Positions 14,735 to 54,158 of a stretch of DNA of 64,000 bases are shown here, one piece after another. Made by a program: the position numbers and the translations under genes. This stretch comes from Patescibacteria group bacterium (GTDB taxonomy: Bacteria > Patescibacteriota > Microgenomatia > Levybacterales > UBA12049). The stretch lies in contig JAMCXO010000002.1 in assembly GCA_023473545.1 (NCBI GenBank), positions 6,340 to 70,339 of the forward strand, read 5' to 3'. Every line of letters starts with the position of its first letter. Positions within the stretch are counted from its first letter, which is position 1. The notes under the pieces are model-generated. The model was not told where the DNA came from. It did not search any database and saw nothing but the letters and a program-made list of their open reading frames with translations.

Positions 14735-16996
14735 CTAATAATGAGGTTTTTTAAATGGCCTTTCCCTTCTTGAGGAAGACTGGGATTCCCGCTGCCAGTT
14801 TCTCCCCCCTTGACTTTGATATCTTTCTCTTCTGAACTGCATCGACAGAGGATGTTCGCGTCTTTGGGAATCAGGCCTCTCTTTTTTCTGTCCAAAATCT
14901 TTGCGCATAGACAGGTTTATTCTGCCTTGTTCATCTATTTCCCTAACCGTTACCTTTACCCTGTCGCCAATCTTAACCAACTGATGAGGGTCATTGACAA
15001 AGCCGTCTGACATTTCGGATACGTGAACCATTCCTTCCTTCCCCGGTGTTAACTCTACAAAAGCGCCAAAAGGAAGAATCCTTTTTACTTCTCCTTCAAA
15101 GACCTCCCCCACGCCAATTTCCCGGGTTATACTTTCAATCCAGGCTACCGCCTGATCGAGCGAGTCCTTATCCGTTCCCGTAACCGTTACGGATCCGTCA
15201 TCTTCAACGTCAACCGTTACGCCTGTTTTGGCCATGATGTTTTTTATGACCCTTCCGCCCGGACCAATCAGCTCCCCTATTTTATCTACAGGAATATGGA
15301 TAAGCTTTATCTTAGGGGCGTAATCGGAAAGCTTTGATCTGGTGTCCGGCATTACCTGAAGCATTTTTTCAAGAATAAAAAGCCTGCCTTTCCTTGCCCT
15401 TTCCAGAATCTCTCCTATCTGTGTTATTGTTAGTCCTGGAATTTTTACATCAAGCTGAATTGCCGTAATGCCATCTCTTGTTCCCGCCACCTTAAAATCC
15501 ATATCCCCTGAAAAATCCTCCAAACCAATAATGTCGGTTAGGATGACATACTGATCTTCGTTTGACACAAGCCCCATGGCAACCCCGGCAACAGGCTTTA
15601 AGATAGGAACACCCGCGTCCATCAAAGAAAGGGTTGATCCGCAAACAGAGGCCATCGAGGTTGATCCGTTGGAAGAAAGAATTTCCGATACCACTCTTAT
15701 CGTGTAGGGAAACCTATCCTGATTTGGGACAACGGCGACAAGCGCCCTCTCGGCCAATGCGCCATGACCTATCTCGCGTCTTGAAGGAACACCAATCCGG
15801 CCTGTTTCCCCGACAGAATAAGGAGGCATAGAATAATGGTGTATATAACGCTTTGATTCTTCTCCTTCGGGAGACTCTATTAACTGCTCCATTCGCGGGG
15901 AGCCTAGTGTTACAACGGTTAAAGCCTGCGTATCTCCGCGCTGAAAAATCGCAGAGCCGTGAGTTCTGGGCAAAACCGAAACCTCGGAGGCTATTGGACG
16001 AATTTCATCTATGCCGCGGCCATCCGGCCTTTTGCCTTTAGCTATTATATTTTCCCTTACTGCGGCAAAAAATACCTTTTCAAAGGCCTTGGCAACCATT
16101 TTTTTATCTATTCCGCTTTCCGGATTAGAGATCTTTTCCGATTCAAAAATTGAATCTATGATCTGTTCTTCCTCTGGGCTATTTGCTTCTTTCGAGGCGC
16201 TTTTAGGTATAAGGGCGGCGATTTCCGCCCCGTAGCTTTTCTTTATTTCGGAAACTAAATCCAAGAACAGCGGGTCTTTTTGCGCTATCTGTTTTTTCTT
16301 GCCTATCTTCTTGGCAATATCCTCTATAAAATTTATTACCTTGGCTGTCTCATCATGCGCCTTTTTTATAGCCGACAAAACGACTGTCTCGGACACATCC
16401 GAGGCGCCTGCTTCAATCATGACTGTTTTGTCTTTATTCTGCGACAAAACCATATCGAGTTCCGAAAGATCAATTTCTCCCTTGCCCGGATTAATAATGT
16501 ACTCCTCGTTGCCGTTATCCTTTTCCTTAACATATCCAATCCTTACCGCCGCAACAGGCCCTGCCCAGGGAATAGAGGAAATACTAAGGGCAAAAGAGGT
16601 AGCAACTATAGACAAAATATCTGGCTCATTTTCTCCATCAACAGACAGCACGGTAACAATAATCTGAACCTCTTTTGTGTATTCTTTTGGGAATAGGGGC
16701 CGTATAGATCTGTCTATCAGCCTTGCGGTTAAGATTGAATCATCGCTTGGCCTTCCTTCTCTTTTAACCCATCTGCTGCCCTTTATTCTTCCGCCCGCGT
16801 ATAATCTTTCCACGTATTCTATAGTCAGAGGAAAATAGCCCAAATCCGGTCTTTCCTTGCCCTCCACCACTGTTACAAGAACCATGGTGTCTCCTAAACG
16901 CGCCAAAACAGAGGCGGTCGCCTGTTTGGCAACCTTGCCAATGGTAAGGGTTAAATTTTTCCCTCCAAATTCCAGATTAAATGATTGCTGTTCCAT
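14735..16996 (-). CDS. pnp: Polyribonucleotide nucleotidyltransferase (PNPase) with an unusual C-terminal basic (R/Q/S-rich) tail of about 50 aa.
   Basis: Two RNase PH domains, KH and S1 domains, and a C-terminal RREHPLSMQFRRERYQSQGGRNWQRESQSSSRRERPFKK tail. Confidence 0.95.
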   Translation of the reverse strand: MEQQSFNLEFGGKNLTLTIGKVAKQATASVLARLGDTMVLVTVVEGKERPDLGYFPLTIEYVERLYAGGRIKGSRWVKREGRPSDDSILTARLIDRSIRPLFPKEYTKEVQIIVTVLSVDGENEPDILSIVATSFALSISSIPWAGPVAAVRIGYVKEKDNGNEEYIINPGKGEIDLSELDMVLSQNKDKTVMIEAGASDVSETVVLSAIKKAHDETAKVINFIEDIAKKIGKKKQIAQKDPLFLDLVSEIKKSYGAEIAALIPKSASKEANSPEEEQIIDSIFESEKISNPESGIDKKMVAKAFEKVFFAAVRENIIAKGKRPDGRGIDEIRPIASEVSVLPRTHGSAIFQRGDTQALTVVTLGSPRMEQLIESPEGEESKRYIHHYSMPPYSVGETGRIGVPSRREIGHGALAERALVAVVPNQDRFPYTIRVVSEILSSNGSTSMASVCGSTLSLMDAGVPILKPVAGVAMGLVSNEDQYVILTDIIGLEDFSGDMDFKVAGTRDGITAIQLDVKIPGLTITQIGEILERARKGRLFILEKMLQVMPDTRSKLSDYAPKIKLIHIPVDKIGELIGPGGRVIKNIMAKTGVTVDVEDDGSVTVTGTDKDSLDQAVAWIESITREIGVGEVFEGEVKRILPFGAFVELTPGKEGMVHVSEMSDGFVNDPHQLVKIGDRVKVTVREIDEQGRINLSMRKDFGQKKERPDSQRREHPLSMQFRRERYQSQGGRNWQRESQSSSRRERPFKKPHY

Positions 16997-17004
16997 AAAA
17001 TAAA

Positions 17005-17274
17005 TTAATCCGCGGTCTTAATAACAGAAAGCATTTTTGATGATCTTTTTTTATCCACCTTAGCTAAAAAATTCATAAGCCTCCGTCTTTTCGAGATCAT
17101 AGACAAAAGACCGCGCCTGCTTCTCATGTCGTGCCCATGCATTTTTAAATGCGATGTTACCTTGGTAATTCTCTCTGTTAAAAGGGCAATCTGCACTTCA
17201 GGACTGCCTGTGTCTCCTTTAACCGTTTGAAACTTTTCGATTATCTTCTTTTTGTCTACCGAACTAAGTGGCAT
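17005..17274 (-). CDS. rpsO: 30S ribosomal protein S15.
   Basis: GDTGSPEVQIALLTERI...HDMRSRRGLL are canonical S15 blocks; forms the rpsO-pnp operon. Confidence 0.95.
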   Translation of the reverse strand: MPLSSVDKKKIIEKFQTVKGDTGSPEVQIALLTERITKVTSHLKMHGHDMRSRRGLLSMISKRRRLMNFLAKVDKKRSSKMLSVIKTAD

Positions 17275-17466
17275 AATACTCTAGCTTCCTTTTTATTAAT
17301 CTTTAATAAGACAATTTCTATTATATCACCTTTTTCTCCAACTCTCAATGCATATTTCTCTAATCGTTCGAGGGCTCCCAAAACAGACATGGGGTTTTGG
17401 CAATTTTGATTAACCCTTTGCCTAAAATTTTATTTCTTTGGGAAATCCTAACCTATTGCCTGACTT

Positions 17467-17491
17467 ATTGCCCTCAAGAATTGCCCTCAAG
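17467..17491 (+). promoter_or_regulatory. Perfect tandem 12-bp direct repeat ATTGCCCTCAAG x2 (with a third degenerate copy upstream) immediately upstream of a TTGACA -35 element (17496..17501). Candidate regulator-binding site for the DsbA-like gene.
   Basis: Seen directly in the sequence; its position relative to the -35 element is typical of an activator or repressor site. Confidence 0.4.
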
Positions 17492-17522
17492 GTTATTGAC
17501 AACTAATAAATAATTCCTTAAA

Positions 17523-18479
17523 ATGTATCTCATGCCGGCTAAAATAAAAAAGACAACTGCTAAAAAGGCTTCTTTGCCTAAACGGATTCAAGGCGCATCA
17601 AGACCTCAATTTTCTTCCGAAAAGATCATTGAGCCCGAATATTTAAGCGTAAATCAAAAACAAACAAAACCCTACACCGCTATTCTTATAGTTCTGCTTA
17701 TTGTTGCCGGATTTTTTATCGGCATGCTTTACACAAAAGTACAATACCTGGAAAAGAACCAGCAGGACAACCAAAAAACCACAACTGTGGGCACTGCCGC
17801 AGCCCCTGCCGGTATTGGACCTTTACATGTTGCCAAGGTAATTGGTATGGATCCTGCCAAATTTAAATCTTGTTTAGAATCTAATAAATACGAGGCTCTT
17901 GTTAAGAGTGATCTTGCGGCCGGTCAAAAAGCCGGGGTGAACGGAACACCAACTACTTTTATTGATGGTTATCCTATGGTAGGCGCTCAACCCTATTCTG
18001 CGTTTAAAACCTTCATTGACCAAGAGCTTGCTAAATCTCAAGGCGGAACCCTGCCGATCGCGATTGTAGGCAAGGCTTACGCAGATTCTAAGATTCTGGC
18101 GCAGGCAAATAATCCCGCTGGACAAGTCTCGGCAATTCCCACACCGGCCAGGGTATCGGTTGGGCTGGGACGGTTTCCGATCATGGGCAATAAAAACGCG
18201 CCGGTAACCGTGGTTGAATTCGCAGATTTCCAATGCCCCTTTTGCGAAAGATGGTTCAAGGATGTAGAGCCGCAACTTATAAAAGACTATGTTAATACAG
18301 GCAAGATAAAGTTTGCCTATAGAAATTACGCGTTTTTGGGACAGGATTCTATCACCGCGGCAGAAGGCGCATATTGCGCTAACGAGCAGGGAAAATTCTG
18401 GGCTTACCACGATTTTATGTTTAACCACCAACAGCAGGAAAACTCCGGCTGGGCAAGTAAAGCAAATTTAGAAGAATAG
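17523..18479 (+). CDS. Membrane-anchored DsbA/BdbD-family thiol:disulfide oxidoreductase with circularly permuted domain order.
   Basis: The CPFC active site and thioredoxin N-half (PVTVVEFADFQCPFCERWF...KFAYRNY...GKFWAYHDFMF) lie in the C-terminal part. The canonical DsbA C-half (GVNGTPTTFIDGY...) lies in the N-terminal part, after the TM anchor. Confidence 0.7.
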   Translation: MYLMPAKIKKTTAKKASLPKRIQGASRPQFSSEKIIEPEYLSVNQKQTKPYTAILIVLLIVAGFFIGMLYTKVQYLEKNQQDNQKTTTVGTAAAPAGIGPLHVAKVIGMDPAKFKSCLESNKYEALVKSDLAAGQKAGVNGTPTTFIDGYPMVGAQPYSAFKTFIDQELAKSQGGTLPIAIVGKAYADSKILAQANNPAGQVSAIPTPARVSVGLGRFPIMGNKNAPVTVVEFADFQCPFCERWFKDVEPQLIKDYVNTGKIKFAYRNYAFLGQDSITAAEGAYCANEQGKFWAYHDFMFNHQQQENSGWASKANLEE

Positions 18480-18491
18480 GTCTATAAAATC

Positions 18492-18764
18492 CTAGGTTAT
18501 TATCCGAAAATCCCGAAAGTCTTCTTTAATATCCTCCCGAATGACTTCAAGATTTTTTATCTCAGCCAAAAACGGTCCTTTCCCAGAAACCATAATCACT
18601 GTCTTGATATTTTTTTCCGAACCCTGAAAAAGCGCCTCTACCTTGTTATCCCGGGTATTTCTAACCCAACCGACAATTCCCAAATTTTCCGCGTTTTTCT
18701 TGATAAAACGTCTAAACCCAACCCCCTGCACGAAACCCGAAATAAAGATATGCGCCTGTTGCAT
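18492..18764 (-). CDS. acyP: Acylphosphatase.
   Basis: VQGVGFR...GWVRN acylphosphatase signature; 90 aa. Confidence 0.8.
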   Translation of the reverse strand: MQQAHIFISGFVQGVGFRRFIKKNAENLGIVGWVRNTRDNKVEALFQGSEKNIKTVIMVSGKGPFLAEIKNLEVIREDIKEDFRDFRIIT

Positions 18765-21721: not shown

Positions 21722-22015
21722 TTAAAACTTCGAGATTACTTTTCCCATAATCTCCTTTTTCTCAATCCAGCCAAATTTTCCGCTGTCCAAACTATCTTTT
21801 CTATTGTCTCCTTCAACAAAATACCTATTCTCTTTTATTTTCTTAATTCTCTTAACAAAAACCCTTTCTGTGTTTCTATCTTTAAAAACTATGATATCGC
21901 CAATCTTGGGTTGGGAAATTAGATACGGAATATAACCAGCCAAAACCCTATCGCCTGTTTTAAACTGCGGTTCCATGCTGTGGCCAATAATCCTAAAAAA
22001 GGATAACAGAAGCAT
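21722..22015 (-). CDS. sodX: S26 signal-peptidase-like NiSOD maturation protease (SodX-like).
   Basis: Ser/Lys dyad context (GHSMEP, VKRIK) and SPase box E (GDNRKDSLDS). The start overlaps the sodN stop (TAATG). Confidence 0.65.
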   Translation of the reverse strand: MLLLSFFRIIGHSMEPQFKTGDRVLAGYIPYLISQPKIGDIIVFKDRNTERVFVKRIKKIKENRYFVEGDNRKDSLDSGKFGWIEKKEIMGKVISKF

Positions 22016-22512
22016 TATTTTGGCAGAACAATCTCTCCTCCTGTCGGATAAGAAGAGGAGACCTTAACTGTTTCCCGATTTTTGGTTTTCCAAAATATTT
22101 GAGCAAACTCCTGAACAGAGGAAAGCAGGTCGCTCGCGCTTTGTTTATCCACTTCCTGCCGGGTTTTGGAAGCAAGCTTCATAATTTTAAAAACCAGATT
22201 ATGCAAATCCGGATAGTCTTTTAGGTGTTCTTCTTTAAAATAATCCCCCCAAATGATTCTCACTTCGTGTTTAACCATTTCCGCGTGTTCTTCCTTTACC
22301 TTTGTGTATCTCGCGATCTTATGCATAAATTCTTTATCTCCTGTTTCAGTTTCTTCTTTTTTTAAATCAAGAATAAGATCGGTCATTCTAATAACAGTGT
22401 GGGCGGATACCTGGGCTAAATGAGGATCGTAAATGCCGCAGGGAATGTCGCAGTGGGCATAGGCAATTTGCCTGGGCACTATTCCTAAAAGAAAGTCAAA
22501 GGCAGTTTTCAT
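22015..22512 (-). CDS. sodN: Nickel-containing superoxide dismutase precursor. The pro-peptide MKTAFDFLLGIVPRQIAYA is followed by the Ni-hook HCDIPCGIYDP.
   Basis: The His-Cys-x-x-Pro-Cys-Gly-x-Tyr nickel-hook immediately after a short leader is diagnostic of NiSOD, and the adjacent S26 peptidase gene supports it. Confidence 0.85.
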   Translation of the reverse strand: MKTAFDFLLGIVPRQIAYAHCDIPCGIYDPHLAQVSAHTVIRMTDLILDLKKEETETGDKEFMHKIARYTKVKEEHAEMVKHEVRIIWGDYFKEEHLKDYPDLHNLVFKIMKLASKTRQEVDKQSASDLLSSVQEFAQIFWKTKNRETVKVSSSYPTGGEIVLPK

Positions 22513-22575: not shown

Positions 22576-22650
22576 TCCGGTGTGGCTCAATGGTAGAGCG
22601 GCTCCCTGTTAAGGAGATGGTTGTAGGTTCGAGTCCTACCGCCGGAGCCA
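22576..22650 (+). tRNA. tRNA-Asn (anticodon GTT) with encoded CCA.
   Basis: Hand-folded cloverleaf: acceptor TCCGGTG/CGCCGGA (one G-U pair), D-arm GCTC/GAGC, anticodon loop CTGTTAA, T-arm GTAGG-TTCGAGT-CCTAC, discriminator G + CCA. Confidence 0.85.
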
Positions 22651-24111
22651 AAGTTGACGAGAGGCGTAAAAAGCTATCTTGTCAAACGGATTTATCCAGT
22701 CATATCGGGCTTTTTTACCCTTCAGTTCTAAGTTCTGAAGTGCCATCTTCAAAAGTAGCCGTTTTTCGTGGGCTTCAGAACTCTCAAAGACTTTTCCAGC
22801 GTTTTCAGCCAGCTTTAGCAGGTAAGATGAGGTGATATAGTATTCCTCATCGGCAAATTGTAGCTTCTCAATTTTCTTGTTGATAGCCTTTTGTTTTGCC
22901 CGATACTCTTTTCGTTTTTTCTCATAGTAGCTCTCAGTAATACTGCCGTCTATTTTGTCTTCCCAAGCCCGCTCAATGCGGTTCTCGTATTTTTTGTATT
23001 CCGATTGGTAGCGATTAAGCAGGCTTTGATGAAACTCTGATTTGTCCTTATGTGAGCTTTTCAGGGAAGTGGCTATATCCTCAACTACATCAGGGGGCAT
23101 TTGGAGCTTGTCAAACAGGCTTACAAACTGTTTGGTTAAGTCGTCTTCTGTTAGCCACTCAGCCCCGTGTTTACCGTTATATTGAGTGCAGTGGTAGTAG
23201 TGATAGACATTTCCGCTTTTCTTTATCTTACGCTCAGGCGTAATCATACAACCGCAGTCGGCACACCTGATTAAGCCTCTATAAGGAAAAGCCAAGCCCG
23301 CATACTTAAAGCGTTTTTTGTTAAACCCTGCTTTTATATCCTGCACTTTGTCAAAAAGTTCTTGGTCAATTACTCGGTCGTAGTTGTGCGTGTATTCTTG
23401 CCCATCATAAAGCATTGTCCCGCAGTAAAAGGGGTTTTTGAGGATAAAATCAATCTTGCCTTTGGAAAAGTCAAAGCCAAACACTTCTTTAATTTTGTTT
23501 CTTACTTCAAGCATTGAGTAACTGCCTGTGGAATACCACTGATACATTTTCTCAACTATCTCTGCCTCTGGTTCGTCAATGCCTATCCATTTTGAGCCGT
23601 CCTCTCTGGTTATATTTTTGTAGCCGTAAGGGGCTTTACCAGGATACTCGTTTTTGCTTATCTTGAACTTGGCGGTATTGATAGCGTCTTCTTTGAGGCG
23701 GTTAAGGTATTGCTTAGCAAGAAAGACCTTCAAGTCCCAATCCTGAATATCCCTGCCAACGCTATCTTTGTTGATAACAAGGTGGTCGTAAACAAAGTGA
23801 ATTTCCTTGCCATAGTCCAGCCGTAGTTCATCAATCTTAACGGCATCTCGGTAGTTTCTGGTTATGCGGTCAACTCGGTAGGAAATGATAACTTTTATGT
23901 CGTCGCTTGCCTTAACAAACTCAATCATTTCGTTAAAGCGTTTGCGTATCTTGTAGTCGGCACTTTCGCTAAAAACAAACTCTTTGACCACCTCAAAATC
24001 TCTTTTGACCGCATAATCTCTAAGTTCAGGGAGTTGAATGTCCTTGAGCGATAAGCCTTCTTTTTCTTGTTTGAGTGTTGATACTCTGGCTAAAATTACG
24101 GCTTTGGTCAT
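22636..24111 (-). CDS. Large serine recombinase (integrase): resolvase catalytic domain, recombinase domain and zinc ribbon. Its 3' end overlaps the tRNA-Asn 3' end.
   Basis: N-terminal resolvase motif (AVILARVSTLKQ...SLKDIQ; YRVDRITR), C-terminal zinc ribbon (RCADCGCMITPE) and coiled-coil. Confidence 0.85.
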   Translation of the reverse strand: MTKAVILARVSTLKQEKEGLSLKDIQLPELRDYAVKRDFEVVKEFVFSESADYKIRKRFNEMIEFVKASDDIKVIISYRVDRITRNYRDAVKIDELRLDYGKEIHFVYDHLVINKDSVGRDIQDWDLKVFLAKQYLNRLKEDAINTAKFKISKNEYPGKAPYGYKNITREDGSKWIGIDEPEAEIVEKMYQWYSTGSYSMLEVRNKIKEVFGFDFSKGKIDFILKNPFYCGTMLYDGQEYTHNYDRVIDQELFDKVQDIKAGFNKKRFKYAGLAFPYRGLIRCADCGCMITPERKIKKSGNVYHYYHCTQYNGKHGAEWLTEDDLTKQFVSLFDKLQMPPDVVEDIATSLKSSHKDKSEFHQSLLNRYQSEYKKYENRIERAWEDKIDGSITESYYEKKRKEYRAKQKAINKKIEKLQFADEEYYITSSYLLKLAENAGKVFESSEAHEKRLLLKMALQNLELKGKKARYDWINPFDKIAFYASRQLWLRR

Positions 24112-24112
24112 A

Positions 24113-25483
24113 TCAGTTCAAAATCATAGCCTCAACTTGTTTTTTTGCTTCATTTAATAACTTAGAGGCTTCGGTTTTTAGTTTTTCTACTTCTTGATAT
24201 TTTTCCATAACTTTATTTGAAATATCTTTCTGCTTTTCTAGTGGGGGTAAAGGTAATAAGAAGCTCTGTATTGTAGGAATTGTAATGTTGCCTTGAATTG
24301 CCCCGATACGCTCTCTTTGGACTAGTAATTTTGAAATATCGCTATTCAGCCAGACTGATGCATAATTGTTATTAAGTTGCTCATTAAGCCTAAACTTAAT
24401 CATAAAAGAGCCATAAGCAAAGCCGTCAGCTTTTTTAGGAACTACCGCTACTATACCTATGCTTCCACTTCTTGAGATGAGCAGGTCATTTTCGTAAACA
24501 AAACAGTTGCCTATTTCTTTTTCCTTACTTTTTGGTAGATGAACAACATCAGTTAAATCTATATGATTAGGTTTTAGATTTAATATCCTAAGCAATGGTA
24601 TACCGTCAGCCATATAATCGTTTTTAACAGAAGCCCCGTAACGGATTTCGGTTATATAGTTACCAAGCTCTTTAATCGGGTATTTGCTACTCTTGAGTTG
24701 GTTTATGGTCGTCGCAAACTTTGGATTGTGATAATAGGGGTCTTGGCGGTTGCCATCTAGGTCTTGTGAGTTGACGGTATAGATTTTTTCTTCCTCTGGC
24801 TCTTGGTAGTCTATGCCTAGCTGTTGCCTTACAAAGCCATCAATAGAGCTTAGTAGCTCGTCGGCTTGTTTTAGTTTTTGTTCTCTTGTTTCATAGGCTT
24901 TTTTTAATAAGTTGGTTATCTGTTTTTGTTTCTCTTCTGGCAATATGGGTATTAGCAGGTCTTCAACATCTTTAGTTTGTAATCTGGGCAATGTATTGCC
25001 CGTCATCAAGTAAGATGTTTGATTGACAACTAGATGAGAGCTAAGAAAAGCAAAGAGATAGTAGTTACTGCACTTGTGGGCTTCCAAAATATGGAACTCA
25101 GTTGAACATATCCCCTCGGTTGTAGCTAAGTGAACTTTGTTTAGGTATGGTCGTAATTTTGGAAAAAGAATGTTGCCAGCATTAAAGCTAAACGCACTAC
25201 CAAACTCTTTGCCTTGATCAACATCAGAAGCTATACCCGTATCACCTTCTATATTTTCAAGACCAAAATAGGGCGTGTCTTCGCTTGCTTCGCTAACAAT
25301 ATCTCTTTTGAATGTTGCTACTTGGCTAAGAGGCAAAACATCACAACTGAGTGATTTAATTCTTTTGACGGCATTTAGCCTAGTTGGGTGGTATGCACTA
25401 GGGTCAAGTCTTCCCTCAAGGTCATTGTAATTAACAAAATAAGTGTTCATATTAACCCTTGTAACCAGGTGTATTTTTAACAA
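24113..25483 (-). CDS. Restriction-modification specificity subunit (HsdS-like, two target-recognition domains). The true start is probably the internal Met at about 25450.
   Basis: Two TRD halves, each followed by a conserved coiled-coil spacer (EEKQKQITNLLKK...; LEKQKDISNKVMEKYQE). Confidence 0.8.
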   Translation of the reverse strand: MLKIHLVTRVNMNTYFVNYNDLEGRLDPSAYHPTRLNAVKRIKSLSCDVLPLSQVATFKRDIVSEASEDTPYFGLENIEGDTGIASDVDQGKEFGSAFSFNAGNILFPKLRPYLNKVHLATTEGICSTEFHILEAHKCSNYYLFAFLSSHLVVNQTSYLMTGNTLPRLQTKDVEDLLIPILPEEKQKQITNLLKKAYETREQKLKQADELLSSIDGFVRQQLGIDYQEPEEEKIYTVNSQDLDGNRQDPYYHNPKFATTINQLKSSKYPIKELGNYITEIRYGASVKNDYMADGIPLLRILNLKPNHIDLTDVVHLPKSKEKEIGNCFVYENDLLISRSGSIGIVAVVPKKADGFAYGSFMIKFRLNEQLNNNYASVWLNSDISKLLVQRERIGAIQGNITIPTIQSFLLPLPPLEKQKDISNKVMEKYQEVEKLKTEASKLLNEAKKQVEAMILN

Positions 25484-27278
25484 ACCGCTTATACTCCTCT
25501 CGGATTTCCGTTAGGTCGTTCTTTGGGTCTTTTCTGCCCGTTGCGTCGTAGCCTATATGGTCGGCAATAGCCATAAAGATAGGATAATTACCTAGTTTTT
25601 CGTTATCGCTTTTGCGTCTGAGGAAAACCAGAGAGGACTTAACCCCAGCTCCAAAGTGAGCAAAGGCAAATTGTGGTAGGGACACAATCGCTTCTATCTG
25701 GCATTTGTCCATTATGTAATCCCTTACATACTGCAAAGAGGAGTTAGATAAAATACCGTCGGGCAAGACTATGGCAATCCTGCCCGTTTTGGGTTTGACA
25801 AAGTTCACACAACGCTCAATAAACAGAATTTCTGTTTTTTGGTTTTTCTTGCCTTTGCCAAGCTCGTAATGGTCAAGGTAGTTTTTCTCGGTTGATTTAA
25901 CCGTTGCCCCAAAAGGGGGATTGGTGAGAATTAGGTCAAAACGGTCTTTGCCAAACTTAGTGTGCAGGTCGTTTATCTCGCTAAAATCTCTCAAGCTGTC
26001 GGTGCTGATGATATTGGTGTGTCCGTCGTCGTGGATAATCATATTCATCTTGCAGACCCTTGCTATCTGGTCGTTTATCTCAATACCATAAAGGTTATTC
26101 ATCGCAAAACTATGCCAGTATTCTTTGGCTTCCCAGTCGTCGTAGTTTGCCTCTGCGAAGTTTCTCACTTCATCAAGCGAGTTGAGCAAAAAGCCCCCGC
26201 TACCGCAAGCGGGGTCTAGGACTAAATCGCCTCGTTGCGGGTTCATCATTTCAACGCAAAACCTGATGATTTCTCTTGGGGTAAAGAACTGTCCCATCTT
26301 GCCCTTAAAGAAGTCTTCCATAAACCGCTCAAAAGCAATTCCTTTGGTGTCTAGGTCAATTTTGTTAATAGCTAGCCCCTGTAAATGTTCTACAACGCTG
26401 TAAACAACTTTCGGGTCAAGCCTGATGTCTTCCTTAAAGACTTCGCTGTCTTCCTGTTTGGCTTTGAGGTAAATAGAGTTGACCCGCTTAAATACTTCGT
26501 CGGCTGTTTCGTGTGTGCCAATTTGGAATTTGTAAGGCTCGCCTCGTTTGGTTAGCTTTTCGTCTCTTAACTTGCAGAACAAAAGTTTAGACACTTCATC
26601 AAAGGCGGTTGTTGGAGCTAATTTGCCACCTTGCCAGACAGTATCGTGGCTCTTGCCAAGAGCGGTTATCAACTCATCTTTGGAAACGGTTTTAAGCTCT
26701 TTGTCTTCTTCTCCTTTAATAAACCTGTATTTGGGCGTTCTGCCGTATTTAACGGGAATATCGGCAATGACATTTTTCTCTCGCTCGCTTGGCTTAAAAC
26801 CCGCAATATCAAAAGCAGTTTTGGTCGTGCCAGCTACCACTATGGCAAACTTGGCTCTTAGGCTGTTGGCGTTACCAAAGGCTTGCTCTATGGCTTGCTT
26901 AAACTCGGCGTCGGTTACCCCGTCTTTTTTGCACTCAACGATAAGGTAGGGGGTCTTGAGGTCATCGTCTTCGTAAATAACAATATCTGCTCGGTCTTCT
27001 GGGGTTCTTCTTGGGACAGTTACCTCAATGTCAATCTGGTTTTGGGGATATTGGTAGTCAAGGACAAGCTCAACAAAATAGGAAGCTCTAATCGTTTCTT
27101 CTGGGTTTTTGAACGAGGTTGAGTAATCCCTTGAGCAATGGTAGATAATGCGGGCGTTATCGTCAGTAAAAGAGATTAAGCCCTCTTGCTTGCCTCTTTC
27201 AATGTTTCTTAAAAAGATTGAGCCTCTGTCGTTGTTATTTGTCATTTTTCCTTTCATAACTGGTAATAAAGCGGTCAA
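25452..27278 (-). CDS. Fused restriction endonuclease-methyltransferase subunit (BcgI A-like): N-terminal PD-(D/E)xK nuclease (HSDR_N-like) plus gamma-class N6-adenine methyltransferase.
   Basis: Nuclease motif D(IVIYEDD)...LIVECKK in the first 120 aa; MTase motif I LDPACGSGGFL; motif IV LTNPPFG. Confidence 0.8.
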   Translation of the reverse strand: MTALLPVMKGKMTNNNDRGSIFLRNIERGKQEGLISFTDDNARIIYHCSRDYSTSFKNPEETIRASYFVELVLDYQYPQNQIDIEVTVPRRTPEDRADIVIYEDDDLKTPYLIVECKKDGVTDAEFKQAIEQAFGNANSLRAKFAIVVAGTTKTAFDIAGFKPSEREKNVIADIPVKYGRTPKYRFIKGEEDKELKTVSKDELITALGKSHDTVWQGGKLAPTTAFDEVSKLLFCKLRDEKLTKRGEPYKFQIGTHETADEVFKRVNSIYLKAKQEDSEVFKEDIRLDPKVVYSVVEHLQGLAINKIDLDTKGIAFERFMEDFFKGKMGQFFTPREIIRFCVEMMNPQRGDLVLDPACGSGGFLLNSLDEVRNFAEANYDDWEAKEYWHSFAMNNLYGIEINDQIARVCKMNMIIHDDGHTNIISTDSLRDFSEINDLHTKFGKDRFDLILTNPPFGATVKSTEKNYLDHYELGKGKKNQKTEILFIERCVNFVKPKTGRIAIVLPDGILSNSSLQYVRDYIMDKCQIEAIVSLPQFAFAHFGAGVKSSLVFLRRKSDNEKLGNYPIFMAIADHIGYDATGRKDPKNDLTEIREEYKRFVKNTPGYKG

Positions 27279-27438
27279 GGTCGGGTTTGTTTATGCGGTA
27301 TTGTTTACCCGCTTTATACGCCTTGAGCTTGCCGTCCTGTATCCAGCGATAGACCGTCAGATAAACCACCTTGAGCATTTTTGCCACTTCTTCTATGGTG
27401 TAGTATTTTTCTTCTGTCATATTAGCTGTATTTAACAT
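27235..27438 (-). CDS. Excisionase/MerR-like HTH DNA-binding protein.
   Basis: YTIEEVAKMLKVVYLTVYRWIQDGKLKAYK matches excisionase-family HTH proteins; the location in a mobile element supports it. Confidence 0.55.
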   Translation of the reverse strand: MLNTANMTEEKYYTIEEVAKMLKVVYLTVYRWIQDGKLKAYKAGKQYRINKPDLDRFITSYERKNDK

Positions 27439-50501: not shown

Positions 50502-51509
50502 TTAATGCTGAAGGCTTAGAAAGCGTTCGACCTCCAAGGCGGCCATACAGCCAAAACCGGCCGCTGTTATCGCCTGTTTATATAAACTGTCATGAACGTC
50601 CCCTGCCACAAAAACGCCCTCTATGTTTGTCTTCGTATGATCATAAACCTTAATGAAACCCTTCTCATCCGCGTCTATACCCTGAAAAACTTTTGAATTC
50701 GGAATATGTCCGATTGCGACAAACACTCCGTCAGCCGGCATTTCCCAGGCTATTGTCTGGTCTTGAACTGCCAGTGCTTGACCCCCCATTTCCTCAGGCA
50801 AAATTTCTTTTTCTTGGTTTTGGGTTTTGATCTCTATCTTTGATCTTTGATCTTTGATCTTTGATCTTATTTGAACCTTCTCCACCTTCCTCTCCCCCAG
50901 TATTTCCGCAATCTCGCTGTTAAATATAACCTTGATTTTAGAGCTGTTAAACACCTTCTCCTGCATGACGGCGGACGCGCGAAAAGCATCTTTTCTATGA
51001 ATAAGGATCACCTCGCTGGCAAATTTTGTTAGAACCAGCGCCTCTTCCATTGCACTGTCTCCACCTCCTACAACTATAACCTTTTTGTTTCTGAAAAAAG
51101 GGGCATCGCATGGAGCACAGGTTGATACCCCTTTGCCAACTTTCTCCTTTTCGCCCGGAACCCCAAGCCATTTTGTATCGGCTCCTGTGGCGATAATAAC
51201 CGATCTTCCCTCGTAGGCTTTTCCCGCAACGGAAATCGCGAATGGAGATTTGGAAAAAGCAGTTTGAGAGAAATCTTCGTCCAGAAACCGCGCCCCAAGT
51301 CTTTCCGCTTGCTTTCGCATCGCTGTCATTAACTCAGGCCCCTGAATTCCTTCCGGGAAACCGGGAAAGTTTTCAACAAGAGTCGTCAGCATTAACTGCC
51401 CGCCCCATTTTGCTCCGGCTATAACTAGTGTCCTAAGATTGGCGCGGGTGGCATAGATAGCGGCAGTTAAACCCGCGGGGCCGGAACCGATGATAATAAC
51501 GTCATGCAT
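50502..51509 (-). CDS. trxB: Thioredoxin-disulfide reductase with an insertion of about 20 aa encoded by a heptamer repeat.
   Basis: FAD motif GSGPAGLTAA, redox-active CAPC, NADPH motif GGGDSAMEEA, and an extra KIKDQRSKIEIKTQNQEKE segment. Confidence 0.9.
   Translation of the reverse strand: MHDVIIIGSGPAGLTAAIYATRANLRTLVIAGAKWGGQLMLTTLVENFPGFPEGIQGPELMTAMRKQAERLGARFLDEDFSQTAFSKSPFAISVAGKAYEGRSVIIATGADTKWLGVPGEKEKVGKGVSTCAPCDAPFFRNKKVIVVGGGDSAMEEALVLTKFASEVILIHRKDAFRASAVMQEKVFNSSKIKVIFNSEIAEILGERKVEKVQIRSKIKDQRSKIEIKTQNQEKEILPEEMGGQALAVQDQTIAWEMPADGVFVAIGHIPNSKVFQGIDADEKGFIKVYDHTKTNIEGVFVAGDVHDSLYKQAITAAGFGCMAALEVERFLSLQH
50838..50865 (-). repeat. Tandem heptanucleotide repeat (CTTTGAT)x4 (+ strand) inside trxB, encoding SKIKDQR-type repeats in frame.
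   Basis: Seen directly in the sequence. Confidence 0.8.
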
Positions 51510-51552
51510 AAAAAACCAAAATCAAAACGCGAAGTGCTGAATCTTTGATTTG

Positions 51553-51879
51553 TTACGAAGCTAAAACCTCTTCTATTTCCTTCTTAAAGTTTTCTTTGCT
51601 TTGGGCCCCAACCATGGTCTTTATCGGCTTGCCATCTCTGAAGATAATAAGACTTGGAATACTCATTACCGCGTAACGAGAAGCTGTTTGCGAATTCTCA
51701 TCTACGTTGAGTTTTCCCACCTTTAATTTATCCTGATACTCCTTGGCCAGCTCTTCAACAATAGGAGAAACCATTCTGCAGGGGCCGCACCATGGAGCCC
51801 AAAAATCAACCAGAACAGGAAGCTTACTCTGCAAAACTTCCTGATCAAAACTAGAGTCGGTAATTACAAAATCCGCCAT
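51553..51879 (-). CDS. trxA: Thioredoxin.
   Basis: WAPWCGPCR active site; 108 aa. Confidence 0.9.
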
Positions 51880-51971
51880 TTATAAATTAACAATAGCAAA
51901 ATCTTTCTTTTCTGTCAACGGAAAAAATTAAACCGGAGGTATATTGGAGGAAAAAAGGGGTATATCCGGTA

Positions 51972-53558
51972 TTAAAAGGATGAAAGCTCTTCCCGTTTTG
52001 TGCGCAAAAACAAAAACCACTGCTCAAAGAATGAAAACAAACCCTTAAAAGGGGCTTCTATTAAGAAATCAAAGACAAAAAGAACAATACTTATCTGCGA
52101 TACTCCCTCTGTTAAATTTCGGCCAACCCGAACTATAGGCATAAAGAAAAAATCAATAAGGGGCGTTAAAAGACTTTGTTTCTCCAAAACATTATACATA
52201 TTCGCGGTTAAGATTATTCTGTAAGACAAAAAAGATACCACTGCTAAAAAAAGAAGGAATACTCCTTGGCTCACAATATTAAAATGAAGCTTGGTCAAGA
52301 TAAAAACTATTGCCCCAAAAGAAACAAAGAAGGCCAGAAACCATAAAAATGTAAAAACAATGTTTAATAAGGGCTGTTTTTGGTCTTTTCTTCCTTTAAT
52401 AACCAAAGGGTCGCCAAGAACTGGACTATCTTCATATAAAACTTCTTCTATAATCTTTAGTATTGCCCTAGAATTGTCATCTGCCGGAATACGGATAGAG
52501 ACCCCAACCAACACCATAAGAAAAGACGGCATGGCAATGTTCAAAAGCATAGACCCTAGAAAAACTTGTCCGTAGAAAATCCTTTCATAGGTTGACTCTA
52601 CTAAAATCGCGATTAGGGCCTTTGTTAAAAGAACAAAGGTAACGCTTCTCACAACCGCCCGTCTAACCTTGGAGGCAATCCCTTGATATCTTACCCTACA
52701 AAGGCCAAAGATTACCTGCTTCAATAAACTCGTATCTCCTACCAAAACCCTAATATTCCCTCTTTGGGTAGAAAGCGCATCCTCTAAAATCAGAAAGGGA
52801 GGGGTTCTTCTTTTGATATAAGAATAAATACTATCTTTAGCCGGATAGTAAATCTGCCTATTTATTTCTTTATATCCTGCCATAAAGTTGGCGGCAATCT
52901 TTTCAAGATTATCTTTTGTCCGTTCTCCAAAAAACTGTCTAAATAATTGATATCTTAAAAAAGCAATATCGTCTCTGTTGAATGCTTTTCTAATTGCCAA
53001 AAGAACCTGGGCGTCCCTTGTTTCGGTTGTTTCATCCAAAAGAGTAACATGATATCTCAAAATTTGAAACATAAAACTTGCCATAATTTCCCTTTCGGTA
53101 TTGGGGTTTACAATATGGGCAATGTCTGAGGAGACAAGCTGATAAATCCATTCGTTTATTGTTCTTTCCCGTAGTATTTCTTTTTTAATAAGAGACTGCC
53201 TAAGGGTCAAATAATAATTGATTGATTGATTAACCTCCTCTACGATTTTACCGCCTATCTGGCCATCGGGGATATAACGCGCCCATAGTAATTCGCGAAG
53301 CAAGGGTTCTGCTATGCTACTAGGATTTCCTCCGAGAAGAAGACGTCTTTTAAGGATTCTTTCAATAGCCGATCTTAGAATAACCTCCTCTTCTCTATAC
53401 TCCATGACATTGCGAAGTTTTTCGTATAAATAGGCTATTTGGGAAACAATGGGGTTTACTTTAAGCTTTGTTTCGTTATCGTGCGGCTCTTCTCTTTCAA
53501 AAGCAGAAATAAGTACATTTGCCAATCTCGCAAGGGGCTTGGTATCTTCTGTCGCCAT
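51972..53558 (-). CDS. Hypothetical protein with a soluble N-terminal half and a polytopic C-terminal membrane half.
   Basis: ORF plus hydrophobicity pattern; no family recognised. Confidence 0.45.
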   Translation of the reverse strand: MATEDTKPLARLANVLISAFEREEPHDNETKLKVNPIVSQIAYLYEKLRNVMEYREEEVILRSAIERILKRRLLLGGNPSSIAEPLLRELLWARYIPDGQIGGKIVEEVNQSINYYLTLRQSLIKKEILRERTINEWIYQLVSSDIAHIVNPNTEREIMASFMFQILRYHVTLLDETTETRDAQVLLAIRKAFNRDDIAFLRYQLFRQFFGERTKDNLEKIAANFMAGYKEINRQIYYPAKDSIYSYIKRRTPPFLILEDALSTQRGNIRVLVGDTSLLKQVIFGLCRVRYQGIASKVRRAVVRSVTFVLLTKALIAILVESTYERIFYGQVFLGSMLLNIAMPSFLMVLVGVSIRIPADDNSRAILKIIEEVLYEDSPVLGDPLVIKGRKDQKQPLLNIVFTFLWFLAFFVSFGAIVFILTKLHFNIVSQGVFLLFLAVVSFLSYRIILTANMYNVLEKQSLLTPLIDFFFMPIVRVGRNLTEGVSQISIVLFVFDFLIEAPFKGLFSFFEQWFLFLRTKREELSSF

Positions 53559-53582
53559 GGGGGTTATTATATACTAAGATCT

Positions 53583-54158
53583 TTAACCTTGCAGAGCCTC
53601 TGCTTCTTCTTTAGAGAATTCCTTCTTTTTGCCAATACCTGCTAACGGCAGGATAAATCTATCCAGCCCCCACCATCCGGCGGTTCTTGAGGCAAAAATT
53701 AAGAGAAGCTCCAAGACAAAGAGTATCGGGTTGGTGCTGACAGTACCTGCCAAAAGATAATTCATATTCATAAACGCACCAAAAAAAGCCGCAATGCCCG
53801 TAAAGATTCCCAAGATAAGGGCTATCCCAACTAAAACTTCTCCATAGGATACCAAATAGGAAAAAATTGTAAGATTATGCATCACCAGTCCTGTTAGAAA
53901 TTGCGCATACCAACCCTGTACCTGTGGATGCGCTCCCCCTGTCTTGGCTAGAGCACCAACAAGAAAACCATGCAAGGCAACTCCTGTCTTAGAGCCGACC
54001 CAGACAGGACTCTGAACTTTTTCTATCCCCGCCGAGAGCCATTCCCAGCCGACATAAAGCCTGACTATAGCCCAAAACCAGGCAAAGGACATATTAGCAA
54101 ATAAAAACCTGGACAATCCGGACTCGGGTATCTCTGTTGCGTTAGGTTTTTTATCCAT
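53583..54158 (-). CDS. DoxX-family membrane protein.
   Basis: Four TM segments with a DoxX-like N-terminal region (RLYVGWEWLSAGIEKV). Confidence 0.5.
   Translation of the reverse strand: MDKKPNATEIPESGLSRFLFANMSFAWFWAIVRLYVGWEWLSAGIEKVQSPVWVGSKTGVALHGFLVGALAKTGGAHPQVQGWYAQFLTGLVMHNLTIFSYLVSYGEVLVGIALILGIFTGIAAFFGAFMNMNYLLAGTVSTNPILFVLELLLIFASRTAGWWGLDRFILPLAGIGKKKEFSKEEAEALQG

Follow-up and report, generated by a model that had tools for sequence, protein, structure and literature searches.

A DsbA-family gene with exchanged domain parts

The stretch of DNA analysed here (the window) comprises 64,000 nucleotides from a Patescibacteria group bacterium (GenBank assembly GCA_023473545.1, contig JAMCXO010000002.1, positions 6,340 to 70,339 of the forward strand), and its gene of interest, dsbA, encodes a protein of the DsbA family in which the two parts of the catalytic domain stand in exchanged order. 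Upstream lie the divergent genes rpsO and pnp, downstream a convergent acylphosphatase gene (Table 1). The longest form of the open reading frame (ORF) runs from 17523 to 18479 on the plus strand and has a second in-frame ATG at 17532; since the methionine encoded there (M4) is invariant across 29 aligned homologues and NCBI annotates a ‘DsbA family protein’ of 315 amino acids (aa) (P0001), ATG 17532 is taken as the true start. Unless stated otherwise, residues are numbered after the 318-aa form that begins at the upstream in-frame ATG 17523, the 315-aa form starting three residues later. With a probability of roughly 0.87, and on the strength of alignments and structural models, this gene would encode a functional, membrane-anchored, extracytoplasmic oxidoreductase of the DsbA/BdbD (Thioredoxin_4) type, with a single catalytic domain in circularly permuted order.

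The protein consists of an N-terminal tail, a transmembrane anchor homologous to that of canonical relatives such as P0011, a low-complexity tether, the part of the DsbA domain that is normally C-terminal (C-part), a linker, the normally N-terminal part with the CPFC motif (N-part), and the stop codon. The tail is rich in Lys and Arg and by the positive-inside rule is probably cytoplasmic; by the same rule such a tail followed by one transmembrane helix implies that the catalytic domain should face outwards. Helices alpha4'-alpha6, the cis-Pro loop (T142-P143), strands beta4-beta5, helix alpha7 and C117 fall in the C-part, and beta1, C238-P-F-C241, alpha1, beta3, alpha2, alpha3 and C285 in the N-part.

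An order of anchor, C-terminal DsbA block, N-terminal CPFC half and stop had been claimed by a first-pass annotation made from the letters alone, and it is borne out both by Pfam and by a hidden Markov model (HMM) of 179 positions, built from the domains of 86 canonical relatives. The peptides which that annotation quoted do occur in the protein. Residues 220-309 match positions 7-97 of the 165 of Thioredoxin_4, and residues 102-165 match positions 127-190 of the 191 of DSBA; the profiles PF13462 (124.6 bits, cut-off 23.2) and PF01323 (61.1 bits, cut-off 25.6) each match in two stretches whose order is swapped, and from the positions of these stretches it follows that the C-terminal part of the domain comes first. 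The domain HMM gives the same picture (in the 315-aa numbering): its positions 109-178 correspond to residues 99-168 and are followed by positions 1-108 at residues 207-314, with the stop codon one residue past position 108. The whole domain is thus present once, as positions 109-178 plus 1-108, without gap, overlap, loss or duplication. Translated comparison (tblastn) with P0011 places 17826-18041 against its residues 194-265 and 18102-18476 against its residues 69-194, and detects neither a leftover half-domain flanking the gene nor a second DsbA-like gene within the 64-kb window. Once un-permuted in silico, the domain is 68% identical to that of canonical P0011, and no gap is needed to align the two. 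At the breakpoint canonical relatives read through as ‘...SKANLEQFASDLGLN...’, whereas the window protein ends in ‘...SKANLEE’ and its domain opens, after the tether, with ‘PLHVAKVIGMD’. The canonical N-to-C order of secondary-structure elements is therefore not the one found, and because positions 109-178 precede positions 1-108 the protein is to be regarded as a permuted variant rather than as an ordinary DsbA member.

Both catalytic elements are in place. C238-P-F-C241, invariant in the 29 homologues, is located at the start of a predicted helix (239-247), and the equally invariant T142-P143 stands directly before a predicted strand (144-147), which by homology is the cis-Pro position. An arrangement of this kind is easily overlooked, as sequential aligners and structure searches see one half of a permuted domain only, and database labels such as ‘DsbA family’, ‘thioredoxin domain-containing’ or a string of three Pfam hits hide the rearrangement.

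Table 1. Coordinates of the permuted gene, its parts and upstream signals, of other genes in the window, and of permuted ORFs at other loci (the latter in the coordinates of those loci)
Feature	Position	Strand	Basis or remarks
pnp	14735-16996	-	upstream neighbour
rpsO	17005-17274	-	upstream neighbour
Direct repeat, ATTGCCCTCAAG twice, one base apart	17467-17491	+	Tandem Repeats Finder (TRF) score 50, period 13, 1.9 copies
Sigma-70-type promoter	17496-17524	+	TTGACA 17496-17501, 17-nt spacer, TAAAAT 17519-17524; 11/12 consensus match
Coding sequence, permuted DsbA-family protein	17532-18479	+	315 aa plus stop; stop codon 18477-18479
Lys/Arg-rich N-terminal tail, residues 4-50	17532-17672	+	sequence; low predicted local distance difference test score (pLDDT); poorly conserved
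Transmembrane anchor, residues 51-71 (YTAILIVLLIVAGFFIGMLYT)	17673-17735	+	AlphaFold2 helix 51-81, pLDDT ~90
DsbA C-part, residues 102-171, HMM 109-178	17826-18035	+	Pfam, HMM, tblastn, pLDDT 93-98
C117	17871-17873	+	in C-part
Cis-Pro loop T142-P143	17946-17951	+	in C-part
Linker, old C-terminus to old N-terminus, residues 172-209	18036-18149	+	predicted disordered; semi-conserved ‘...KAYA(Q/D)’ motif
DsbA N-part, residues 210-317, HMM 1-108	18150-18473	+	Pfam, HMM, tblastn, pLDDT 90-98
C238-P-F-C241	18234-18245	+	in N-part
C285	18375-18377	+	in N-part
Acylphosphatase gene	18492-18764	-	downstream neighbour
Nickel superoxide dismutase (Sod_Ni) and adjoining S26-type peptidase	21722-22512	-	
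tRNA gene	22576-22647	+	
Serine recombinase gene	about 22636-24111	-	
TrxB-like ORF	50502-51509	-	assigned by size and gene order
Thioredoxin-sized ORF	51553-51879	-	assigned by size and gene order
528-aa ORF	51972-53558	-	
DoxX	53583-54158	-	
Permuted ORF, class B, L013	5365-6207		
Permuted ORF, class B, L018	5944-6705		
Permuted ORF, class B, L045	5680-6603		
Permuted ORF, class B, L048	5824-6720		
Permuted ORF, class C, L019	2857-3690		
Permuted ORF, class C, L027	5770-6564		

Conservation, origin and predicted fold

In a search of 5.8 billion proteins about 30 of the best 120 matches align collinearly, as a single block, over 79-99% of the query, save for a truncated fragment that reaches 64%, and carry the cis-Pro motif ahead of CPFC, the other matches being canonical and covering about 35-45%. 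At least 32 permuted proteins could be classified, all sharing the breakpoint 108/109, and because the same breakpoint recurs in so many proteins the swap cannot be due to chance. The 29 permuted homologues that were aligned are 47-70% identical, with a mean column identity of 50%, all end within one residue of ‘NLE’, and are invariant not only in CPFC and T142-P143 but also in C117 and C285. A profile search of 1.84 billion representatives is of no use for estimating the size of the family, its best 150 matches being swamped by tandem multi-DsbA proteins; four permuted representatives with a single stretch stand among those 150.

The samples behind the permuted homologues are unrelated, their assemblies coming from NCBI, JGI, ENA and Logan. 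An identical protein is encoded on a separate 15.6-kb contig of assembly GCA_023379465.1, which also holds an identical stretch of 266 bp comprising the upstream intergenic region and the first codons. That many independent assemblies show the same order serves here as a proxy for read support and excludes misassembly, and the alignment of orthologues, which the first-pass annotation had proposed as a check, finds the permuted order conserved in related assemblies. In comparisons of the gene with four orthologues, the proportion of synonymous differences (pS) is 0.66-0.99, i.e., saturated, as opposed to 0.12-0.29 for nonsynonymous differences (pN), in both halves of the domain, pN being higher in the linker and the N-terminal region than in the domain halves. 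The swap is a real feature of a Patescibacteria clade, in which it is conserved and under selection.

The genomic surroundings connect the permuted with the canonical form. The permuted genes of the window, of P0002 (loci L007-9) and of P0051 (L002/3) are all placed upstream of one convergent block made of acylphosphatase, a small ORF, peptidyl-tRNA hydrolase (pth) and MJ0043_C, followed in the relatives' loci by DNA ligase, and canonical P0011 (L004-6) is found upstream of the same acylphosphatase-pth-MJ0043_C block with a few extra genes in between. On the other side of dsbA, permuted or canonical, the relatives often have a DoxX gene. Since both forms occupy the same slot upstream of the pth block, they are positional orthologues. 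In neighbour-joining trees of the un-permuted domains (179 columns), 30 of the 31 permuted sequences group together, and their sister group consists of 71 canonical sequences from Patescibacteria, many with the label Levybacteria. The permuted clade has a bootstrap support of 179/200 when P0268, a divergent sequence with another breakpoint, is removed, and of 125/200 on the N-part alone; it is not recovered on the C-part alone (18/200), and monophyly drops to 0/200 with P0268 included.

From slot and tree together we infer that the permuted gene arose once, in situ, in the ancestor of a Patescibacteria clade. Most probably the gene was first duplicated in tandem or fused, after which the N-part of the first copy and the C-part of the last were lost. 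Textbook accounts of circular permutation by duplication and deletion have tandem multi-domain proteins as the intermediate, and such a route is plausible here because proteins with 2-6 DsbA domains, as counted with our own HMM, are extremely common (P0121-P0269; 400-1200 aa, the longest with 1196 aa).

As for the fold, structure prediction had been suggested by the first-pass annotation as a way to see whether the halves assemble, and both are modelled with confidence. AlphaFold2 run with the 29-sequence alignment gives pLDDT values of 93-98 over residues 100-170 and of 90-98 over 211-318, falling below 50 at linker residues 181-203; over the whole window protein the mean pLDDT is 80 and the predicted template modelling (TM) score, pTM, is 0.65. 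For the short-linker orthologue P0051 the AlphaFold values are 88.7 and 0.76, and its two halves likewise exceed a pLDDT of 90. The topology of the models was tested with Foldseek against the PDB (TM scores normalised to the target). PDB entry 1un2, a permuted DsbA, aligns to the window and P0051 models over 231 and 194 columns, with TM scores of 0.61 and 0.56; it is the top match for P0051 and the only PDB entry aligned across the whole of its own chain. Wild-type E. coli DsbA, in contrast, aligns over 76-90 columns only (TM 0.29-0.36) and BdbD over about 90-110, canonical DsbA/BdbD structures as a whole over about 76-119 columns, mostly within one half (TM 0.29-0.47). With the same E. coli protein in wild-type order acting as an internal control, the models are connected in the way expected of one permuted DsbA fold, and thioredoxin core and inserted helical domain are predicted to form one globular unit.

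The linker that joins the old termini measures 7-46 residues across the permuted family, about 38 in the window protein and 7-12 in many members. A long-linker subgroup (P0002-9, P0028/29/34/44, P0081, P0212 and the window protein) has in common an amphipathic motif that closes with ‘KAYAQ’ or ‘AFAQ’ (for instance NIFSQLSAALSMKAYAQ) and is predicted to be disordered. The idea that the long linker is a vestigial second transmembrane anchor was rejected, as an hhalign comparison of 14 long linkers with the pre-domain regions of 86 canonical proteins returned a probability of 0.5% and one aligned column.

The two further invariant cysteines, C285 in helix alpha2 of the old N-part and C117 in the old C-part, occur together in 31 of the 32 permuted proteins and in each of the 86 canonical relatives. 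Amongst 420 domains of tandem DsbA proteins, both are found in 111 and neither in 306, and in as few as three is there one without the other, and such strong covariation indicates a disulfide. In the permuted chain C117 and C285 stand on opposite sides of the new termini. They probably form a structural disulfide that staples the chain break, a bond that would hold the domain's final 34 residues to its opening 20.

Function and competing explanations

If the models are correct, the chain, after its transmembrane anchor (N-terminus inside) and flexible tether, would enter the domain inside the helical insertion, and would then run through the cis-Pro loop, beta4-beta5, alpha7, the linker, beta1, the CPFC helix, beta3 and the first insertion helices to the stop, the two segments packing into one ordinary DsbA fold. 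Because they pack in this way, catalysis, with CPFC opposite the cis-Pro loop, is predicted to work as in canonical DsbA. The enzymatic activity is inferred by homology, and its direction, that of an oxidase, is assumed. The closest solved relatives are BdbD and Gram-positive oxidases of the DsbA/TsdA/MdbA type, and DsbA-like oxidases typically combine a CPxC motif with a T-cisPro loop. As no other DsbA-like gene is apparent in the window and the genome is a reduced one, the product of dsbA is probably the organism's main extracytoplasmic disulfide catalyst.

Several observations concern possible redox partners. A cluster of four minus-strand ORFs lies at 50502-54158 of the window: a TrxB-like ORF, a thioredoxin-sized ORF, a 528-aa ORF with no significant Pfam match, and DoxX. 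This DoxX/TrxB cluster directly adjoins permuted dsbA in L007-L009, and a rearrangement moved it 36 kb away from dsbA in the window genome. Directly downstream of dsbA, at canonical as well as permuted loci, there is also a multi-pass membrane protein of 179 aa with ‘GCSSCG’ in a transmembrane segment (L004 8800-9339, L005, L006, L012, L021, L029, L056, L076, L010 6870-7370 and L013 6237-6722); it has no Pfam match, is absent from the window, and is a candidate redox partner of the adjoining DsbAs. In some family members (P0006, P0007, P0008, P0212 and L010 5845-6813) the cytoplasmic tail bears a CxxCxxCxxC cluster, e.g., CNNCGKCENC, which might bind metal or resemble a zinc ribbon; no such cluster occurs in the window protein.

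Not all observations favour a functional, intramolecularly folded oxidase of single origin. Assembly of the fold rests on AlphaFold models and on Foldseek alignments with root-mean-square deviations of 6.7-7.7 Å, 1un2 being a distant homologue with 16-18% identity to the modelled proteins, and no aligned PDB relative has cysteines at both the C117 and the C285 position. The trees behind a single origin are neighbour-joining trees of 179 columns, and a duplication intermediate of the gene's own lineage was not found, the tandem proteins retrieved being 38-42% identical. No DsbB or VKOR was recognised in the 64-kb window, whose ORFs were not systematically screened for them, and a CcdA-like DsbD_TM protein, a copper ATPase and CsoR as neighbours in relatives would also fit a reductive or copper-related role.

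These neighbours, together with the apparent lack of DsbB and VKOR, are also what recommends the view that the protein folds as described but acts as a reductase or an isomerase, with a membrane protein of the CcdA/DsbD type maintaining it in the reduced state, for example in copper or oxidative-stress defence. Canonical locus L004 has DsbD_TM (CcdA-like), a copper P-type ATPase and a CsoR-type repressor, permuted locus L002 likewise has the ATPase and the repressor, copper-resistance proteins and ScsC (‘suppression of copper sensitivity’) are amongst the sequence matches, and the best NCBIfam match, well below its cut-off, is a thioredoxin-like lipoprotein family. We hold this to be unlikely, though far from negligible, since the closest solved relatives and the CPxC/T-cisPro combination are those of oxidases, and since the inspection for partners covered 64 kb of the genome only. 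A greater departure from an intramolecular fold would be its completion between chains, as a domain-swapped dimer or oligomer held together on the membrane by the flexible linker, whose function could then shift, e.g., to that of an isomerase as in oligomeric DsbC, DsbG and ScsC. The disordered linker of about 38 residues, the amphipathic ‘...L..L...KAYAQ’ motif kept in the long-linker subgroup, and the presence of dimeric or trimeric relatives (DsbG, ScsC, alpha-DsbA2) amongst the structural and sequence matches would suit such an oligomer. It is nevertheless improbable in view of the 7-12 residue linkers of many members, of the confident monomeric model of short-linker P0051, which aligns across an engineered monomeric permutant, and of the fact that, going by the title of 1un2, a short linker sufficed for intramolecular folding in E. 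coli DsbA.

It could equally be asked whether there is a working enzyme at all, for tandem DsbA-domain proteins are very common, the span of C-part, linker and N-part is exactly the junction of two tandem copies, and the long linker is predicted to be disordered, all of which would fit an inactive and decaying remnant in which the C-half of the first copy has become joined to the N-half of the second. Decay is very hard to reconcile, however, with a breakpoint and an end that at least 32 proteins share at identities down to about 47%, with invariant CPFC, cis-Pro and cysteine pair, with pN remaining at 0.12-0.29 in both halves whilst synonymous sites are saturated, and with a conserved strong promoter; nor are there remains of the missing halves beside the gene, which is the only DsbA-like one in the window and sits in the slot of the canonical orthologues. 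The first-pass annotation had left the choice between a circular permutation and the fused remnant of a tandem duplication: a genuine permutation is favoured, and a dead remnant is contradicted by the conserved family, the purifying selection and the confident models, tandem duplication being the likely historical route of the permutation. The same annotation had raised the possibility of a misassembly, and the source is a metagenome-assembled genome; yet a local rearrangement of a canonical gene by assembly or binning deserves next to no weight, given the identical protein and upstream region on a different contig of GCA_023379465.1 and the same-order homologues in all four assembly sources. 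A permuted, functional DsbA-type oxidoreductase accordingly stays the preferred reading.

Whether the permutation itself brings any advantage is another matter. The tether was shifted to the helical domain, which might be adaptive, e.g., for docking a partner other than DsbB or VKOR, such as the 179-aa CSSC protein or DoxX. On the other hand, the rearrangement may well be functionally neutral, because the tethers of both forms are long and disordered.

Upstream region, further permutants and known systems

The first-pass annotation had also described a perfect tandem repeat of 12 bp next to a TTGACA -35 element, and had taken this to suggest regulated expression. Two perfect 12-mers are indeed present, with a one-base spacer between them, so that the period is 13 and not 12; a degenerate ATTGCC precedes them at 17455, and the -35 element is confirmed 4 nt past the repeat. 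A regulatory role is a different case: the repeat is identical in the second assembly (GCA_023379465.1) and occurs in none of 88 other loci examined, orthologous promoters included, and 10 copies with up to two mismatches were found in the window against an expectation of 7.0 +/- 2.6. With 21 TRF rows of score 40 or more in 64 kb, a short repeat of this kind is ordinary for the genome. A role of the 13-bp repeat as a regulatory site is therefore not supported, the repeat having no excess of copies and no counterpart in the 88 loci whilst similar repeats are frequent, and it is probably a local duplication.

The promoter, on the contrary, recurs. Its -10 element ends 7 nt before ATG 17532, and the layout TTGACA-17/18-TAnAAT-ATG is shared by the window, four other permuted and two canonical loci, with a gap to the ATG of 6 nt in five of the six other loci and of 11 nt in the sixth, L010. 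There is no Shine-Dalgarno sequence before dsbA, whereas the neighbouring rpsO has AGGAAG. With no such sequence and the -10 element so close to the ATG, transcription should start at or next to A17532, which suggests a leaderless mRNA; the gene would be expressed from its own strong promoter. No structured RNA was detected in the upstream intergenic region of 250 bp, and a scan of the whole window at Rfam gathering thresholds returned a single tRNA, at 22576-22647.

Further downstream, about 3 kb from dsbA, the window holds Sod_Ni with an adjoining S26-type peptidase, presumably the Sod_Ni maturation protease. The tRNA gene abuts the serine recombinase gene, past which there are restriction-modification genes (a specificity subunit and an N6-methyltransferase/MmeI-like gene) and an HTH_17 gene; the region 22576-27420 looks like an integrated element beside the tRNA.

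Other permuted DsbA-like ORFs, all with an N-terminal transmembrane anchor, are found in species-representative genomes at different breakpoints. An alignment of the domain HMM to E. coli DsbA (length 189, with C30/C33, T99, Q100 and P151 all checking) places T99/Q100 at HMM 98/99, and the natural break 108/109 at approximately R109/D110. If the family of the window is called class A (break at HMM 108/109), class B breaks at about HMM 95/100, the spot of the engineered T99/Q100 (P0268, L013, L018, L045 and L048, L045 being labelled Tepidiformaceae, Chloroflexota), and class C at about HMM 116/117 (L019 and L027). In a broader neighbour-joining tree classes B and C are scattered amongst canonical sequences, such trees being weak. 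It may thus be, though we say so tentatively and with more doubt than conviction, that permutation of DsbA is recurrent in nature, with at least three breakpoint classes, all within about 20 residues of the helical insertion (about 96-117 in E. coli). Nature would in that case have repeatedly found sites tolerated in random permutation experiments, helped by tandem DsbA arrays and by a break-stapling disulfide. L010 (CAYQEE010000002.1) and several other loci carry the titles ‘uncultured Gammaproteobacteria’ or ‘Pseudomonadales’, labels that look wrong because their DsbA genes and the neighbours inspected resemble Patescibacteria loci.

Work on protein folding, and on circular permutation by engineering, has DsbA as one of its classic models. 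A natural permutant at the same locus as unpermuted orthologues of 68% identity amounts to a clean natural evolution experiment, of value for asking how permutants arise, which sites tolerate new termini, whether a disulfide can make a chain break more stable, and how folding proceeds during translation or translocation when the CxxC half emerges last.

Amongst known systems close to the window protein, the canonical Patescibacteria DsbA/BdbD proteins (P0011, P0024) have the same transmembrane anchor, CPFC, T-cisPro, cysteine pair, genomic slot and promoter layout; in these the domain parts are unswapped and the tether joins beta1, whereas in the window family it joins the helical insertion, and an extra linker connects alpha7 to beta1. 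B. subtilis BdbD (PDB 3eu3), the best canonical match in both structure and sequence, likewise has the unswapped order. Tandem DsbA proteins (P0014, P0018, P0121-P0269) contain the junction of C-part, linker and N-part and score very highly against the permuted profile, but have complete domains on both sides of it and, at about 38-42% identity, are not direct ancestors of the window protein. For the cysteine pair there is a precedent in Wolbachia alpha-DsbA1 (PDB 3f4r; C97A/C146A mutant 3f4t), which has an extra non-catalytic pair, C97-C146, 49 residues apart, just as C161 and C210, the equivalents of C285 and C117 in canonical P0011, are 49 residues apart; this likeness to a structural disulfide in the helical region rests on the spacing and on the title of the PDB entry.

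A close counterpart in architecture is man-made. Random circular permutation of E. coli DsbA was the subject of a study by Hennecke, Sebbel & Glockshuber (1999; as cited in PMC13552848 and PMC3281007), and PDB 1un2 bears the title ‘circularly permuted CPDSBA_Q100T99: preserved global fold’. Engineered cpDsbA_Q100T99 has the same fold, with the natural termini joined by a linker and new termini inside the helical insertion; it is soluble and broken at T99/Q100, whilst the window family breaks about 10 residues later and possesses a natural membrane anchor, a natural linker of 7-46 residues and an extra conserved cysteine pair. Full-text literature searches returned engineered permuted DsbA only and no description of a natural one. 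The protein of the window is thus a newly recognised, natural permuted DsbA, the counterpart of a form that had previously been known from engineering in the laboratory only.

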